A stretch of 64,000 nucleotides of DNA from NCBI RefSeq assembly GCF_045037415.1, contig NZ_CP173438.1; one strand, 5' to 3'. Origin of the DNA: Escherichia coli (lineage in GTDB: Bacteria; Pseudomonadota; Gammaproteobacteria; Enterobacterales; Enterobacteriaceae). Made by a program: the position numbers. Shown here one piece after another: positions 27,901 through 33,900 of the stretch (positions are counted from its first letter, which is position 1; every line of letters begins with the position of its first letter).

Positions 27901-30900
27901 GATATATTCACCGCCCTGTCTGATTAACCTTTGATTTTGGCTATTAATTTTCCGTATCTGGCATCTTCATCTGCCATAAATGTCGTCATCTCTTTGCCAT
28001 ACAGCGGGTAAACTTCGAAACCCTGTTTGGTAGCGAATTCTTGTAATTTCCCCTGCGCAAACACTGCCTGCATAGCGGCAGTTAATTTTTGTGAGACCTC
28101 TTCAGGAGTACCCGCCGGAACCACTAAGGCATTCCATGTCGCCAAATGATATTTATAGCCAGTTGCTTGTTGGAATACTGGAAGATCTTTATAAAGCCCT
28201 GCTGATTTTTCTGCCATGGTCGCTAAATTACGCACCATTTTGGCATCGACCATACTTTTCGCTTCGCCTGGTGATGACGTTGTAAAATCTATACCACCGG
28301 AAACCAGTTCCATCAGTGCAGAACTGGAACCTTCAGAAGGCACCCAGGTCACGGCAGAAGGCGGAAGCCCCATACTGTCGAGCATACCTATCAAGTTCAG
28401 ATGCCAGCCGGAATTTAACCCGCTACCCGATGCTTTTAACTTACCTGGATTCGCCTTGATGTAGTCGGTCATCTGGACGATATTTTCGAACTGCGAATTT
28501 GCTGCGACTTGCACGCCTCCCAGATTCACTGCCAGCCGTGTAATTGGCGTGTAGTTCTGATACGTTAACGCCGTCATCCCCTGATGGTGCATCATGGTGA
28601 TTTCTACCGTCGCAATTCCCAGGGTATAGCCATCCGCTTTAGCTTTCGCAATGGCATCATGGCCAACCACCCCAGCACCTCCCGTGCGATTCACCACGTT
28701 GACATTCACTTTCAACTCTTTTTGCAGCCCTTCTGCCACCAGGCGTGCAACCGTATCGGTATTTCCTCCCGCGCCCCAGGGGACAATGATTTGGATTGGT
28801 TTTTCTGGCCATGCAGCCAGCGCGGAACCTGAAACCAGCAGTGAAGCAACGGCACAACTCATCAGGGTTCGTTTCATATTTGTAGACTCCTGTCTTAATT
28901 ATTTTTTAATAACAGCAAGTGCTGTCGGATATTAATATTTGAGTTGTTGACGCTGGAAATCTGCGGCATCAGCAATTTGTTTTAGCACCACCTCCAGCCC
29001 CCAATATTTTTTCAGCACATCGTCAGCCGTTACCCGGCAATGAACACAGTCAAATGTTCCTCGCTGCTGATGAAATATTTTGGCATTTTTCGGATAGCCA
29101 ATATTTTCACTGACGGCACTCAGCGATAAAAACCAGGCGAGTTGTTTTGCCTCTTCAGGGTGTTGTTTTCCTTCAAGCCAAAGCCAGTGATACAAGTCAG
29201 GATGAAAGTTGGCAAAGACGCCACAAAAACCTTTCGAACCTGCAAGCATCGCCTCCCAGGCAATGGCAGCATTAGCATTAACAATCGTCATTGGCGTGTG
29301 CTGAGTTAATTGCACCCGTCGCGTCACTGTAGGTAGATCACAACTGACGTCTTTTAAGATTTGAAAACGCCCGCTTTGTGCGCAGTAAAGCAGTTCCTCA
29401 TCGGTTAATAAGCGGCGATACGGGGCCGGGCATTCATACAGACCCAGCGCCATACTTTCGGGTAATGACATCAATAGCGCATCAAGCGTACGGAGGAATA
29501 CCGTGGTACCTTCGTTATGTGGATCAAGATGATTCGTCACTAACACCAGCGCATCAATGCCCGTTGCCGCCATAGCATTGAGCTCCTGAATTTGCTGTTC
29601 CAGATCATCAGAAATATGCCCGGACGCAATAACCGGTACTCGTTGTTGGCTATATTCAACCACAAAGCTCGCCAGCTCCACGCGCTCTTCTAAAGTTAAA
29701 TACTGCATTTCACTGGACTGACACACGGCAAATAACGCGTCGGCACCGTTTTCGATATACCAGTCAATTAGCCGTTTAAGACCCAGGTAATCAATTTTAT
29801 TATCCGCCGTAAAAGGCGTTAGCATTACCGGAATAATCCCTTCAATTGTTTTCATATTTCATCCTTCGTTCAGTGAAACATCAGAAAGTCTGAATGGCAA
29901 CATTCTGCTGCTGAATTCTGGCATCCACCAGAGAGATATCAGGCATATTGGCTGCCCCTTCTTTTTCTACTGCCAGCGAAGCGAAAGCGCTGGCATACCA
30001 GGCTGCTTTAACAAGTGATTCTCCCTTCGCCAGTGCGGCGGCGAGCGCGCCATTAAACGCATCACCCGCACCTGTTGTATCTACAGCGACTGCCGAAAAT
30101 GCCGGAATATGCGCACATTGTTGCCCGTCATAAATTAATGCACCTCGTTTTCCCATCGTAATAATTACTGAACATTGCCCGGCATTATAAATATGCTTCG
30201 CAGCCTTCACAGCATCAGAAATATTGTCAATTACCATACCTGACATCGCCGATGCTTCGGTTTCATTTGGCGTCACAATATCAACAAAAGGTAATAATGT
30301 GGCGACATCACTGGACCACGGTGCAGGATTTAAAATCGTTGTCACCTGCATTTTTTGAGCACATTTTAATGCCAGTTGAGTAGCGGCAAGATTATTTTCC
30401 ATCTGTACAATGAATACATCGGACTCGGCTATAAAGTGAGAAAGTTGAATAATATCGTTATCACTTAATTCATGATTTGCCCCTGGAGACATAGCAATCA
30501 TGTTTTCACCTTCATCATTTACATAAATGACCGCACAACCGGTGGTAGATAGTTCAGACTCATAAAAAGTAAATGAACCAATACCAATGGACTCAATATG
30601 ATTGCGGGCAAAATGATTAAACTGATCGCGACCAATCTTACAGGCGAAGTGTATTTGCGCACCTGCCCGATGAGCGGCTAGTGCCTGATTCGCGCCTTTA
30701 CCCCCCGGCCCCATGGTAGTTTCCCTGGCCACTAACGTTTCGCCTTCATTCGGGAAGCGATACACTTTCGCCACAATATCGACGTTAAATGATCCTAACA
30801 CACAAACTTTACCTACCATTCGGCGTCCTTTATCATCAAGCGAGGTTAAATAGCCAATACCCTGCTGTTGTTGCTTGATAAGCAAACTCATATCGACATA

Positions 30901-33900
30901 CTCTTGTTGCGAAAGCGCATTTTGCATTAAATGTTTTTTCAATGAGACGCCTCCATGATGACGACTCACTACACCACGCTTTTGCAACCACGCTAAATCT
31001 GTCCGAATCGTCTCTTTGGTAACAGAAAAATAGTTAGCTAAATCGCTAACACTGCACTCATCCTTGTTGCGAAGTAACCGGACAATATATTCACGACGGG
31101 TATCCCGATACATAAGTCTTCCTTTTTGATTTTATTATCACTAAAAAAGAAATTGTTATCGGGATTTTTATCAAGAAAAAAACAGGCAAGCAAAAACAAA
31201 CAAAAATATTATTCAGGCGAAACGATTCACCTAAAGATAATTAATATTTAGCTTACAAATAAAATAAAATTAATTATCCGTAACATATATAAATAACGTC
31301 AGGTAACGAAAGTAAGAGACTCCCCCTTCTTTCTTATTATTCACATCCAGCCCTAAACTCGCTCGGGCTGGCCCCGGTGCATTTTTTAAATACTCGCGAG
31401 AAATAGAGTTGATCGTCAAAACCGACATTGCGACCGACTGTGGCGATAGGCATCCGGGTGGTGCTCAAAAGCAGCTTCGCCTGACTGATGCGCTGGTCCT
31501 CGCGCCAGCTTAATACGCTAATCCCTAACTGCTGGCGGAACAAATGCGACAGACGCGACGGCGACAGGCAGACATGCTGTGCGACGCTGGCGATATCAAA
31601 ATTACTGTCTGCCAGGTGATCGCTGATGTACTGACAAGCCTCGCGTACCCGATTATCCATCGGCGGATGGAGCGACTCGTTAATCGCTTCCATGCGCCGC
31701 AGTAACAATTGCTCAAGCAGATTTATCGCCAGCAATTCCGAATAGCGCCCTTCCCCTTGTCCGGCATTAATGATTTGCCCAAACAGGTCGCTGAAATGCG
31801 GCTGGTGCGCTTCATCCGGGCGAAAGAAACCGGTATTGGCAAATATCGACGGCCAGTTAACCCATTCATGCCAGTAGGCGCGCGGACGAAAGTAAACCCA
31901 CTGGTGATACCATTCGTGAGCCTCCGGATGACGACCGTAGTGATGAATCTCTCCTGGCGGGAACAGCAAAATATCACCCGGTCGGCAGACAAATTCTCGT
32001 CCCTGGTTTTTCACTATGCCCTGACCGCGAATGGTGAGATTGAGAATATAACCTTTCATTCCCAGCGGTCGGTCGATAAAAAAATCGAGATAACCGTTGG
32101 CCTCAATCGGCGTTAAACCCGCCACCAGATGGGCGTTAAACGAGTATCCCGGCAGCAGGGGATCATTTTGCGCTTCAGCCATACTTTTCATACTCCCGCC
32201 ATTCAGAGAAGAAACCAATTGTCCATATTGCATCAGACATTGCCGTCACTGCGTCTTTTACTGGCTCTTCTCGCTGACCCAACCGGTAACCCCGCTTATT
32301 AAAAGCATTCTGTAACAAAGCGGGACCAAAGCCATGACAAAAACGCGTAATAAAAGTGTCTATAATCACGGCAGAAAAGTCCACATTGATTATTTGCACG
32401 GCGTCACACTTTGCTATGCCATAGCATTTTTATCCATAAGATTAGCGGATCCAGCCTGACGTTTTTTTTCGCAACTCTCTACTGTTTCTCCATACCCGTT
32501 TTTTTGGATGGAGTGAAACGATGGCGATTGCAATTGGCCTCGATTTTGGCAGTGATTCTGTGCGAGCTTTGGCGGTGGAATGCGCCACTGGTGAAGAGAT
32601 CGCCACCAGCGTAGAGTGGTATCCCCGTTGGCAGAACGGGCAATTTTGTGATGCCCCGAATAACCAGTTCCGTCATCATCCGCGTGACTACATTGAGTCA
32701 ATGGAAGCGGCGCTGAAAACTGTGCTTGCAGAGCTTTGCGTCGAACAGCGCGCAGCTGTGGTCGGGATTGGCGTTGACACAACCGGCTCGACGCCCGCAC
32801 CGATTGACGCCGACGGCAACGTGTTGGCGCTGCGCCCGGAGTTTGCCGAGAACCCGAACGCGATGTTCGTATTGTGGAAAGACCACACCGCGGTTGAAGA
32901 AGCGGAAGAGATTACCCGCTTATGTCACACGCCGGGCAACGTTGACTACTCCCGCAATATTGGCGGTATTTATTCCAGCGAATGGTTCTGGGCAAAAATC
33001 CTGCATGTAACTCGCCAGGACAACGCCGTGGCACAATCTGCCGCATCATGGATTGAGCTGTGCGACTGGGTGCCAGCTCTGCTTTCCGGTACCACCCGCC
33101 CGCAGGATATTCGTCGCGGACGTTGCAGCGCCGGGCATAAATCTCTGTGGCACGAAAGCTGGGGTGGCCTGCCGCCAGCCAGTTTCTTTGATGAGCTGGA
33201 CCCGATCCTCAATCGCCATTTGCCTTCCCCGCTGTTCACTGATACCTGGACTGCCGATATTCCGGTGGGCACCTTATGCCCGGAATGGGCGCAGCGTCTC
33301 GGCCTGCCTGAAAGCGTAGTGATTTCCGGCGGCGCGTTTGACTGCCATATGGGCGCAGTTGGCGCAGGCGCACAGCCTAACGCACTGGTAAAAGTTATCG
33401 GTACTTCCACCTGTGACATTCTGATTGCCGACAAACAGAGCGTTGGCGAGCGGGCAGTGAAAGGTATTTGCGGTCAGGTTGATGGCAGCGTGGTGCCTGG
33501 ATTTATCGGTCTGGAAGCAGGCCAATCGGCGTTTGGGGATATCTACGCCTGGTTTGGTCGCGTACTCGGCTGGCCGCTGGAACAGCTTGCCGCCCAGCAT
33601 CCGGAACTGAAAGAGCAAATCAACGCCAGCCAGAAACAACTGCTTCCGGCGCTGACCGAAGTATGGGCTCAAAATCCGTCTCTGGATCACCTACCGGTGG
33701 TGCTCGACTGGTTTAACGGCCGCCGCACACCGAACGCTAACCAACGCCTGAAAGGGGTGATTACCGATCTGAACCTCGCTACCGACGCTCCGCTGCTGTT
33801 CGGCGGTTTGATTGCTGCCACCGCCTTTGGCGCACGCGCAATCATGGAGTGCTTTACCGATCAGGGGATCGCCGTCAATAACGTGATGGCGCTGGGCGGC

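Follow-up and report, generated by a model that had tools for sequence, protein, structure and literature searches.

An acquired island between yabI and araC

The window (the whole 64 kb stretch of Escherichia coli DNA analysed here) carries an island of 5.6 kb that stands in place of 106 bp of intergenic DNA in K-12 and has a lower GC content than its flanks (44.4% vs 54.8%). The island occurs at the same insertion site in Klebsiella spallanzanii. Among 5426 complete E. coli genomes, 571 carry the island and 574 carry its first gene, which encodes a fusion protein. The island and its genes are as follows.

25766..31332, no strand: acquired island between yabI and araC (BLAST against K-12, GC calculation)
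29881..31113, minus: rikA-like ORF, 410 aa, first gene of the predicted operon (ORF list, Pfam, RefSeq CDS WP_000285500.1)
28932..29855, minus: DHDPS/NAL-superfamily protein, RefSeq "Dap2 family DHDPS-related protein" (ORF list, profile scores, RefSeq)
27924..28877, minus: tctC, periplasmic binding protein of a tripartite tricarboxylate transporter (RefSeq; Pfam TctC in orthologous loci)
27438..27875, minus: tctB, small membrane subunit (RefSeq start; the ORF list runs to a GTG at 27911)
25941..27428, minus: tctA, large permease subunit, last gene of the predicted operon (ORF list, RefSeq)

Because the gaps between genes measure only 9–54 nt, the five genes (the fusion gene, the gene for the DHDPS-like "Dap2" lyase, tctC, tctB and tctA) fit a single operon, which is evidently horizontally acquired. 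The DHDPS-like protein is the invariable partner of the fusion subfamily represented in the window, and at 58 of the 77 reference-genome loci its gene lies next to the fusion gene. Its Schiff-base Lys and Tyr align; the DHDPS-specific Arg does not. In the window and in orthologous loci, no regulator gene other than the fusion gene was found in the cassette.

A DeoR-type domain fused to a ribokinase-like domain

According to the ORF list, the fusion gene starts with ATG, and RefSeq places WP_000285500.1 on the identical 1233-nt span, naming the product either [quoted passage not shown] or PfkB family carbohydrate kinase. A first-pass annotation of this DNA had described a 410-aa ORF at 29881-31113 with an N-terminal DeoR-like HTH and a PfkB domain; its coordinates matched exactly those of an ORF on the minus strand, and a Pfam search recovered both domains.

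30940..31098, minus: HTH_DeoR domain, residues 6-58 (Pfam PF08220, i-E 1.1e-14)
30811..30939, minus: linker, residues 59-101, with low conservation and predicted disorder (alignment and AF2)
29944..30810, minus: PfkB/ribokinase domain, residues 102-390, with GGKGANQA, NETE and DTTGAGD (351) (Pfam, TIGR02152, RbsK alignment, Foldseek)

Hallmarks of the HTH (V-T-K-E-T-I-R-x-D-L and R-x-H-G-G) are conserved across the fusion family, and the window HTH shares the T-I-R-x-D-L and R-x-H-G-G signatures with DeoR/GlpR-family regulators (DeoR, GlpR, SrlR, AgaR). AF2 pLDDT was 86-95 over residues 6-58 and fell below 50 at linker residues 66-97; mean identity among fusion homologues was 50% for the HTH, 28% for the linker and 61% for PfkB. 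The PfkB match (PF00294, i-E 8.8e-67) covered model positions 3-298 of 302. Where DeoR/GlpR-family regulators have a C-terminal DeoRC (ISOCOT-fold) sugar-phosphate sensor, the window protein has a catalytic PfkB domain instead, and Pfam returned no match in the fusion protein to the DeoRC effector/oligomerisation domain (PF00455), nor to a ROK domain. Hence, the protein has a predicted DeoR-type DNA-binding module and is not a canonical DeoR-family regulator, in line with the departure from the usual effector domain proposed earlier.

The kinase motifs named in the first-pass annotation were each located in the ORF: GGKGANQA at residues 137-144, NETE at 283-286 and DTTGAGDAFNGA at 345-356. The same annotation had held that degenerate motifs would speak against its reading; alignment to RbsK showed them to be intact. 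The alignment with E. coli RbsK (PDB 1gqt/1rkd; E 3e-54) gave 37% identity over the entire kinase domain; the two proteins share their fold (TM on target 0.87-0.89) and agree in the residues for ribose, ATP, K+ and catalysis. The top 50 Foldseek matches were ribokinases without exception, with TM on target reaching 0.94. Residues were scored against a list of positions that we take to be functional in RbsK from the 1RKD literature, and nearly all positions checked were invariant among 120 fusion homologues. The RbsK ribose contacts N14, D16, G42, K43, N46, A98, I100, I110, E143 and D255 are shared by the query and all 120 homologues, and the NXXE residues N187/E190, ATP-site T223, G225 and G228, and K+-site D249 are also retained. 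Catalytic D351 of the query sits in the GAGD anion hole, as in RbsK, and D351, G348-A349-G350, N283/E286 and G137-G138-K139-G140-N142 are invariant or nearly so among the 120 homologues. Comparable residue conservation has been described for RikA (PMC13432705). The NCBIfam ribokinase equivalog cutoffs were narrowly missed (TIGR02152, 298.8 vs 299.65; PRK11142, 270.9 vs 341), so the window kinase is best described as ribokinase-like and not as an RbsK equivalog.

RikA (STM3547) of Salmonella enterica LT2 was named and characterised by McCormick, Jabbar and Escalante-Semerena (Mol Microbiol 2026, PMC13432705). It was found to phosphorylate ribose both in vivo and in vitro, with a Km for ribose of 2.0 mM; D343A was inactive, and N-terminally MBP-tagged full-length RikA was active (PMC13432705). 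Its kcat/Km was roughly 50-fold below that of RbsK, and the authors note that ribose may not be the physiological substrate and that the activity is possibly off-target or moonlighting (PMC13432705). From the native RBS, the only product recovered was ~35 kDa, in keeping with a start at Met90, and lacked the HTH; RikA(90-404) supports growth on ribose (PMC13432705). The window protein has the layout of the RikA family (a DeoR-type N-terminal domain and a ribokinase in one ORF of ~400 aa). Both proteins combine a predicted DeoR DNA-binding domain (residues 2-57 in RikA) with a PfkB ribokinase that has the catalytic Asp, and each has an internal Met where the two domains meet (Met90 in RikA, Met99 in the window). 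Their cargo differs: the window has the Dap2-like lyase and TctCBA, whereas RikA is accompanied by an amidotransferase-like protein, a DMT transporter and a phosphotriesterase (STM3548-50). The rikA-stm3548-stm3549-stm3550 neighbourhood was not found in the window, where the DHDPS-like gene and tctCBA lie downstream, but fusion loci of this type were seen in Proteus, Klebsiella (L085) and Citrobacter (L074). Since the window protein shares 40-42% identity with Php-linked (RikA-type) members, and both subfamilies occur together in Klebsiella spallanzanii and in Phytobacter massiliensis, the comparison points to a paralogue of STM3547 rather than an orthologue.

Together, sequence and the analogy with RikA strongly support an ATP-dependent pentofuranose 5-kinase, with D-ribose most probably the substrate. 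The kinase domains of the DHDPS-linked and UriH-linked subfamilies are told apart by only one position, and a Gilliamella fusion locus carries the ribose-releasing enzymes UriH and UriT, which exceed their curated cutoffs at 521 and 676 bits, respectively. The earlier suggestion of a working kinase is thus well supported: the domain is catalytically intact by all sequence criteria, and the probable paralogue STM3547 is active on ribose. The further suggestion that it phosphorylates the pathway substrate stands for the kinase activity and needs revising for the substrate, which is likeliest to be ribose released inside the cell (or a near-identical pentofuranose) and not the transported acidic compound.

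Two possible starts and a conserved upstream repeat

Elements that may govern expression of the fusion gene lie upstream of it and at its domain junction.

31187..31207, minus: 21-bp tandem direct repeat ATTTTTGTTT-GTTTTTGCTT-G with a 10-bp period, candidate HTH operator (PWM)
31176..31186, minus: third GTTT unit (CCTGTTTTTTT), out of phase, kept in the TctCBA-type clade (upstream alignment)
31160..31175, minus: CRP-like half-conserved element CTTGA-TAAAAA-TCCCG, fixed 13 nt past the repeat (offset counts)
31134..31139, minus: -10-like hexamer GATAAT, predicted promoter (conserved with Klebsiella; geometry)
31118..31124, minus: Shine-Dalgarno AAGGAAG for Met1 (sequence)
30817..30830, minus: internal SD-like AAGGA (30830-30826) and in-frame ATG of Met99 (30819-30817) (sequence)

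An SD-like 4-mer precedes Met1 in 47/62 DHDPS-linked, 6/6 Php-linked and 4/4 UriH-linked genes. The second in-frame SD-ATG, at Met99, is an addition to the first-pass annotation. Met99 coincides with the start of the kinase domain, its ATG follows the AAGGA by 6 nt, and it is a candidate second start that would yield a kinase-only product of ~312 aa. The internal Met is found in 47 of the 62 DHDPS-linked genes, 40 of these 47 having an SD-like 4-mer before it (vs 10% for other internal Met codons). It is missing from the remaining 15 DHDPS-linked genes, from 4/4 Proteus genes and from 2/4 UriH-linked genes, and these genes therefore give the kinase only as a fusion.

The HTH codons themselves are evidently under purifying selection: dN/dS was 0.07-0.21 where dS was unsaturated (a Proteus RikA-type pair included), and dS itself was at least 0.67 or saturated. 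Moreover, the HTH-kinase frame is open and fused at more than 80 loci in Enterobacterales, Vibrionales, Aeromonadales, Orbales and Alteromonadales. Selection on the HTH and the many homologues without an internal Met indicate that the long form must be made, and translation and selective maintenance of the HTH are strongly supported. A true start downstream of the HTH had been named in advance as evidence against the fusion; the Salmonella Met90 product and the equivalent SD-ATG in E. coli go part of the way towards it, and selection on the HTH and the homologues lacking an internal Met argue against it.

The direct repeat (type ATTTTTGTTT-GCTTCCGTTT, window positions 31207-31187) lies ~95 nt 5' of the fusion gene and, at 26.8 bits, is the top PWM site of the 64 kb (runner-up, 16.3). 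It was found in all 61 non-identical orthologous upstream regions at a fixed distance of about -95 (20.6-32.7 bits; shuffles at most 9.3), and only two off-target sites of at least 16 bits occurred in 2.3 Mb. Fusion genes with UriH or Php cargo are likewise preceded by the repeat, at one copy per locus; among the Php-linked (RikA-type) genes, those of Proteus and Klebsiella have the same element. No repeat was found upstream of the Shewanella fusion gene, whose recognition helix reads PKTIR rather than KETIR. As the repeat tracks the fusion gene through three cargo operons and is gone where the recognition helix differs, it is a candidate operator for the fusion HTH. Direct-repeat operators are typical of several DeoR/GlpR-family members.

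The third GTTT unit was delimited by aligning upstream regions from E. coli, Klebsiella, Phytobacter, Citrobacter and Vibrio. At the offset of the CRP-like element, TGA-N6-TC is present in 49/61 loci and TGA-N6-TCA in 33/61 (shuffles, 0.8%); the element is centred 28 nt before the -10-like hexamer, and TAnnnT follows it by 20-22 nt in 37 of the 49 loci. Counted from the predicted start site, the predicted operator would span about -80 to -60, on the upstream side of the promoter core; this is an unusual placement for a simple repressor.

A putative trigger enzyme and its alternatives

Our best explanation, to which we assign a probability of roughly 60%, is that the gene encodes a RikA-family fusion acting both as a pentofuranose kinase and, through its HTH, as a trigger enzyme on the direct repeat of its own operon. 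The long form would dimerise through the ribokinase lid, as in RbsK, and so set two HTHs on the tandem 10-bp repeat of its own promoter (about -80 to -60), beside the CRP-like site (about -40.5). Sugar and ATP would close the lid and shift the HTH geometry, so that the kinase active site would also be the effector site; the protein may be either a repressor/anti-activator or a co-activator. The Met99 SD-ATG may additionally give a kinase-only product, as in Salmonella RikA. With its acid transporter and its class I pyruvate-lyase-like enzyme, the cargo probably serves to take up an acidic compound and cleave it, and the kinase would phosphorylate the sugar product of this cleavage.

Parts of this arrangement are familiar from other systems. 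RbsK lacks a DNA-binding domain and is under the control of a separate protein, the LacI-type RbsR, whereas the window protein has ~100 extra N-terminal residues. ROK-family repressors (NagC, Mlc, XylR) join an N-terminal HTH to a sugar-sensing domain of sugar-kinase fold; theirs is the ROK/ASKHA fold with catalysis lost, whereas the window fusion has a PfkB fold with intact catalytic residues. The trigger enzymes RbkR, NadR, BirA and PutA have an enzyme and a DNA-binding domain in one polypeptide, and at the sequence level the window protein has this layout, with a catalytically competent enzyme. For example, RbkR, an archaeal riboflavin kinase/regulator, combines a wHTH with a small-molecule kinase and binds the operators of its own regulon (PMC5397151). 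The active site doubles as the effector site in these four proteins, which is only proposed for the window protein; they also belong to other folds and families and to cofactor or amino-acid metabolism, whereas the fusion belongs to sugar catabolism and its regulatory half is putative.

It is quite unlikely, in our assessment, that the protein simply starts at Met99 as an ordinary accessory ribokinase, the 98 upstream codons being an artefact or a relic of a separate DeoR-type gene. The ~35 kDa Salmonella product, growth on ribose with RikA(90-404) and the enriched SD-Met pair fit such a start, yet the low dN/dS of the HTH codons, the fused frame in five orders, a Met1 with its own SD and the Proteus and DHDPS-linked genes lacking the internal Met do not, and the 35-kDa band could stem from cleavage in the disordered linker, as only a C-terminal tag was followed. 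A protein that is mainly a transcription factor, whose PfkB domain senses a sugar other than ribose (e.g., an aldose from the Dap2 lyase) and phosphorylates ribose as a side activity, is rather unlikely. The E. coli host already carries rbsK, the scores fall slightly below the ribokinase cutoffs, and RikA has low efficiency on ribose and an activity that its authors suspect of being off-target or moonlighting; against this, residues with a role in catalysis alone (Asp base, GAGD anion hole, NXXE) are invariant throughout the 120 homologues, every listed ribose contact is that of RbsK, and UriH/UriT-linked members, for which ribose is the obvious product, have the same pocket.

The remaining alternative concerns the repeat, which might be bound by another factor (e.g., a direct-repeat response regulator) or be UP-like or curved DNA, with the HTH acting elsewhere or in another role. 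The repeat is T-rich, lies in the zone of UP elements and activator sites (about -60 to -80), and has exact copies elsewhere by chance (104/120 metagenome matches are without a fusion gene), so a different protein could bind it. We nevertheless consider this improbable: the element accompanies the fusion gene through three unrelated sets of cargo and at many sites in the chromosome, is present once per locus and is lost exactly where the recognition helix changes, and the conservation of its G and CC positions points to base-specific recognition. The first-pass proposal that the protein regulates the operon it heads has gained computational support, with selection on the HTH, the lack of another regulator in the cassette and the tracking repeat in its favour and the HTH-less product from the Salmonella native RBS against it.

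The fusion itself was already known, since RefSeq carries the RikA name and a 2026 paper both named the family and established it as a ribose kinase. What is new here is the apparent purifying selection on the HTH and the resulting argument for the long form, the direct repeat at 61/61 upstream regions, and the tracking of repeat and gene across different cargo, which together suggest that the regulatory half of these ribokinase fusions may be functional.

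The fusion protein and its kinase domain

The ATG-started ORF at 29881-31113 (minus strand) encodes 410 aa (RefSeq CDS WP_000285500.1), and its first-pass annotation as a DeoR-type HTH fused to an apparently intact ribokinase-family domain proved correct in every detail. A Pfam search placed HTH_DeoR at residues 6-58 (1.1e-14) and PfkB at residues 102-390 (8.8e-67), with no DeoRC domain in the protein. Structure prediction (AlphaFold2, 75-sequence alignment) likewise gave two confident domains, a winged HTH (residues 1-60) and PfkB (residues 101-410), with a mean pLDDT of 87.9; the linker between them falls below 50 at residues 66-97. 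The closest solved structure is E. coli ribokinase (1gqt/1rkd, 3e-54), and the best 50 Foldseek matches in the PDB were ribokinases of ~300 aa, none of which combined an HTH with PfkB. The protein scored 298.8 bits against the NCBIfam ribokinase model TIGR02152, 0.85 under the cutoff, and 270.9 against PRK11142 (cutoff 341). The kinase motifs are not degenerate when aligned with the family: NXXE, the ATP-site glycines, the K+-site D249 and the GAGD anion hole are kept, as are the RbsK residues N14, D16, G42, K43, N46, A98, I100, I110, E143 and D255, which we take to be the ribose contacts. RbsK-type sugar, ATP, K+ and catalytic positions are nearly all invariant across 120 homologues.

In one RefSeq record, this very protein is called 'putative transcription factor/ribokinase fusion protein RikA', a name that comes from work on Salmonella STM3547 (McCormick, Jabbar and Escalante-Semerena, Mol Microbiol 2026, PMC13432705). 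STM3547 is enough to allow growth on ribose, has Km values of 2.0 mM (ribose) and 50.5 µM (ATP), and requires D343, the equivalent of RbsK D255; deoxyribose, xylose and xylulose were hardly used and L-arabinose was not used, D-arabinose being outside the panel (PMC13432705). Full-text literature searches turned up no characterised DeoR-PfkB fusion besides RikA. STM3547 is a member of the phosphotriesterase-linked (Php-linked) subfamily, whereas the window gene is a homologue with another neighbourhood, linked to a DHDPS-like gene. The window protein is 40-42% identical to the Php-linked members compared, and the DHDPS-linked and Php-linked types occur together in Klebsiella spallanzanii and Phytobacter massiliensis, which points to its being a paralogue of STM3547. 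The fusion itself already has a name and has been characterised in part, and the window gene represents a distinct, probably paralogous subfamily with different cargo. Its sequence and the biochemistry of its probable paralogue together make a strong case that the kinase domain is an active ribose-type kinase.

The cassette, its island and the wider family

The window is E. coli chromosome (thiPQ-yabI ... araC-araBAD-polB), in which the fusion gene is the first of five co-directional genes (fusion gene, DHDPS/NAL-superfamily gene, tctC, tctB, tctA) separated by 25, 54, 48 and 9 nt. Homology to K-12 ends at 25765 and restarts at 31333, and the 5.57 kb in between takes the place of 106 bp of the K-12 yabI-araC spacer (44.4% GC versus 54.8% in the flanks). 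The whole island is present in 571 of 5426 complete E. coli genomes and the fusion gene in 574, always on the chromosome and with at least 99% identity in 572; among the carriers listed are an O25b:H4-ST131 strain and several isolates from urine. An 81%-identical cassette occupies the same araC|yabI site in Klebsiella spallanzanii. Scanning both strands of the island with Rfam (E up to 1) gave no RNA family, which leaves no riboswitch or leader explanation.

The DHDPS-like protein, 'Dap2 family DHDPS-related protein' in its RefSeq record, carries a Schiff-base Lys (ILKDVS) and a Tyr (LYECP) that align with DHDPS, has Pro at the DHDPS substrate-binding Arg position, and scores far under every curated family cutoff; it looks like a pyruvate-type class I lyase. 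A literature search for 'Dap2' found no relevant paper. Several urinary isolates (H1-H4) carry an IS1 copy at the 3' end of this gene (e.g., locus L090 3538-4235 of E. coli 1162invT2, matching the 3' end of window gene 28932-29855), which shortens the lyase and probably uncouples tctCBA 3' of it. A separate variant, a C-terminally truncated fusion-protein allele of 332 aa (E. coli protein cluster P0008, 126 member sequences), matches the full-length protein exactly through residue 331 but does not reach the GAGD catalytic motif, leaving an HTH and a dead kinase stub in some lineages; IS1 was ruled out as its cause, as it breaks the DHDPS-like gene and not the kinase. At the left edge of the island, 12 nt past the tctA stop, lies a perfect 10-bp inverted repeat (25904-25928, AGACCATCCA-CAACT-TGGATGGTCT) with a T-run on neither strand, which may be a terminator or a boundary element. 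The start of tctB (27438-27911) is GTG 27911 in the mechanical ORF list (157 aa) versus 27875 in RefSeq (145 aa).

A protein search returned hundreds of 400-410-aa proteins with the same two domains, mostly named 'ribokinase', from Klebsiella, Citrobacter, Vibrio, Aeromonas, Rahnella, Dickeya, Pectobacterium, Erwinia and other genera. Scanning one genome per species with an alignment of the N-terminal 135 residues yielded 80 loci, almost all with Gammaproteobacteria titles. A DHDPS-like gene lies directly 3' of the fusion gene in 58 of the 77 loci having an intact fusion ORF, followed by a YhcH/NanQ-like DUF386 protein and an ACS-type MFS transporter (27 loci), TctCBA (16), an MFS transporter alone (13) or the contig end (2). 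The cassettes of the surveyed loci contain no second regulator gene.

Other, more diverged members have different cargo. In Gilliamella, Zophobihabitans, Leminorella and Limnobaculum (L066 7001-10557, L059, L048 and L056), the fusion gene heads a three-gene operon with a uridine-preferring nucleoside hydrolase (UriH) and a uridine transporter (UriT), with the same upstream repeat as described below; L066 was the sole locus scored (UriH 521 bits, UriT 676 bits, both over curated cutoffs), and the cargo of the other three was assigned from near-identical N-terminal sequences. These operons are likely to form a uridine/ribose utilisation regulon under predicted kinase-regulator control. A RihC-like hydrolase lies beside the fusion gene in Serratia and Shewanella, and the location of fusion genes beside ribose-releasing hydrolases fits ribokinase function. 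At the specificity positions, A358 is the only difference between DHDPS-linked and UriH-linked kinase domains (n=4 UriH-linked sequences) and is uninformative as to substrate. Cargo in Proteus, Klebsiella (second copy) and Citrobacter comprises amidotransferase-like, membrane and phosphotriesterase-like proteins. The last gene of this STM3548-50-like cargo in Proteus and Klebsiella (L079 8236-11104, L085 8229-11054) gave a weak, far sub-threshold match to NCBIfam 'phospho-furanose lactonase' (49.8 bits, cutoff 630) and a stronger phosphotriesterase-related match, a hint that the kinase at such loci could phosphorylate a pentono-1,4-lactone-like furanose.

Two fusion paralogues occur in single genomes of Klebsiella spallanzanii (L010 and L085), Phytobacter massiliensis (L011 and L073), Serratia marcescens (L036 and L045) and Prodigiosinella (L027 and L039). 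Cargo differs in most pairs and the upstream repeats are similar, raising the question of regulator cross-talk on near-identical candidate operators. In the insect endosymbionts Candidatus Sodalis / Symbiopectobacterium endolongispinus (L020 6887-8209, L077 6995-7807), the fusion gene is in pieces (255 + 172 aa; 270 aa), as is the MFS gene, which is consistent with pseudogenisation in progress.

A candidate operator and promoter

The 250-nt regions preceding the fusion gene in 61 non-identical DHDPS-linked loci were aligned and have in common a 21-bp element built from a pair of 10-bp direct repeats (consensus ATTTTTGTTT-GCTTCCGTTT-T). This element reaches 20.6-32.7 bits in 61/61 loci (best of 1220 shuffles, 9.3) and starts 92-101 nt ahead of the ATG in nearly all of them, within sequence that is unrelated between genera. 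Elsewhere in the locus sequences (2.3 Mb, both strands), just two sites score 16 bits or more. The element also stands upstream of fusion genes whose cargo is UriH (20.7-27.9 bits) or Php (19.8-29.9 bits) and is absent upstream of the Shewanella fusion genes, whose recognition helix reads T-P-K-T-I-R in place of [ST]-[KR]-E-T-I-R. The repeat stays with the regulator gene and not with the cargo, and it co-varies with the recognition helix. In comparative genomics, this pattern is the standard mark by which an autoregulated factor's own site is recognised. Within tctB, at 27582, there is a weak copy of the motif (15.4 bits).

Predicted regulatory features upstream of the fusion gene
31207-31187, minus strand: candidate operator, 21-bp tandem repeat (26.8 bits; next best in the 64-kb window, 16.3)
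31175-31160, minus strand: predicted CRP-like element, CTTGATAAAAATCCCG
31139-31134, minus strand: -10-like hexamer GATAAT of the predicted promoter

Thirteen nt 3' of the repeat, TGA-N6-TC is found in 49/61 loci and TGA-N6-TCA in 33/61 (shuffles, 0.8%), and 37 of the 49 have a TAnnnT hexamer 20-22 nt past this element. Their spacing would be the geometry of a class II CRP-dependent promoter; with an assumed start site at ~31127, the CRP-like element is centred at -40.5 and the repeat spans -80 to -60. The promoter is predicted, and so are the CRP assignment and the sign of regulation. A generic sigma-70 scan gave sites no more frequently than in shuffles, and the proposed promoter was not among them.

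A metagenome scan with the exact 18-base operator core found 10 matches 97-98 nt upstream of fusion genes and 104 without a fusion gene, together with five having too little downstream DNA to tell and one whose sole PfkB match is distant (38% identity, ~1.1 kb downstream). The 104 matches do not share flanks, come from contigs of 22-63% GC and often lie inside ORFs, which fits chance copies of a T-rich word. As the matches are mostly of this kind, the scan adds no regulon members and is no test of specificity.

Isoforms, regulation and substrate

The 2026 work on STM3547 placed a PROSITE-predicted DeoR DNA-binding domain at residues 2-57, and a construct tagged at the C-terminus and carrying 278 bp of the native upstream DNA gave only a ~35 kDa protein, consistent with a start at Met90; RikA(90-404) sustains growth on ribose (PMC13432705). 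The window gene has a matching candidate internal start at its HTH/kinase junction, where the otherwise variable linker of the family ends in a conserved K-G-x-x-M.

Putative translation starts of the fusion gene
31124-31118, minus strand: SD of Met1, AAGGAAG
30830-30826 and 30819-30817, minus strand: internal SD-like AAGGA and Met99 ATG

The junction Met is present in 47/62 DHDPS-linked genes, 40 of these 47 having an SD-like 4-mer at -14 to -7, against a background of 10% before other internal Met codons. A kinase-only product from Met99, and so two isoforms, is thus plausible in E. coli too. The HTH is nevertheless kept by selection, as judged by codon evolution: Nei-Gojobori dN/dS over codons 1-58 is 0.07-0.21 where dS is unsaturated (dS being saturated in many pairs) with 0.070 among these values for a Proteus RikA-type pair, similar to the kinase domain (0.03-0.09). 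Moreover, the internal Met is absent from 4/4 Proteus, 2/4 UriH-linked and 15/62 DHDPS-linked genes, in which the kinase therefore exists only as a fusion, and an SD precedes Met1 in 47/62 DHDPS-linked, 6/6 Php-linked and 4/4 UriH-linked genes. Selection on the HTH, the Met-less members and the Met1 SD together call for the long form to be made as well. A true start downstream of the HTH, one of two findings that the first-pass annotation had named as refuting its reading, is plausible as an additional start at Met99 and unlikely as a replacement for Met1. The published 35-kDa band could also come from cleavage in the disordered linker, since only the C-terminus was tagged.

That the protein is a trigger enzyme, both phosphorylating its substrate and regulating the operon it heads, is a reasonable reading with comparative support, although unproven. 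From comparative genomics, the HTH is predicted to bind the tandem repeat and to control its own operon. RbsK dimerises through its lid, and ribose binding closes the lid and raises the affinity for ATP. The kinetics of RikA also show ribose raising ATP affinity (PMC13432705). By extension from RbsK, binding of sugar and nucleotide would re-orient the two kinase bodies, and hence two tethered HTHs, with the kinase active site acting as the effector site. Given that the repeat sits upstream of the CRP-like box, RNA polymerase is unlikely to be simply occluded, and regulation by anti-activation or by co-activation is possible.

Judging from its transporter types, its lyase and the NanQ-like protein, the cassette may act on an acidic keto-sugar or sugar conjugate, and the unchanged ribose pocket points to ribose, or a very similar compound, as the product that is phosphorylated. 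In its make-up (lyase, acid transporter, NanQ-like DUF386, kinase), the cassette is like the nan operon, a likeness that made cleavage of Kdo to pyruvate and D-arabinose an attractive idea. This is disfavoured by a kinase pocket that is the same as in RbsK and the UriH-linked members and favours D-ribose, and Kdo is retained only as a low-probability lead; in the literature consulted on Kdo aldolase, EC 4.1.2.23 had no gene assigned.

A wider, tentative reading, to which we give about one chance in five, is that HTH-kinase and kinase-only isoforms set expression of an operon whose cargo is an undescribed acidic-sugar pathway. The long form would bind the repeat, the kinase-only form would heterodimerise with it through the ribokinase lid, and the isoform ratio and ribose/ATP-driven lid closure would jointly set operon expression. 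The Dap2-type Schiff-base lyase and an acid transporter of the TTT or MFS type, sometimes joined by a NanQ-like anomerase, would form the pathway from an acidic sugar conjugate or ulosonic acid to a ribokinase substrate, and the cargo could hold the gene for an orphan activity, e.g., Kdo aldolase (EC 4.1.2.23).

The comparative data bear on the question raised by the 2026 RikA paper of whether the N-terminal 90 residues are part of the protein, and the 21-bp repeat provides a concrete probe for DNA binding. Characterised enzymes with a fused DNA-binding domain (BirA, NadR, PutA and RbkR) all belong to cofactor or amino-acid metabolism. Should the long form prove to be a working regulator, RikA-type proteins would be the first kinases of sugar catabolism to double as transcription factors via a fused DNA-binding domain. 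About one complete E. coli genome in ten carries the cassette as a metabolic island, and its substrate is of ecological interest because related cassettes occur in plant-associated Enterobacterales and marine Vibrio.
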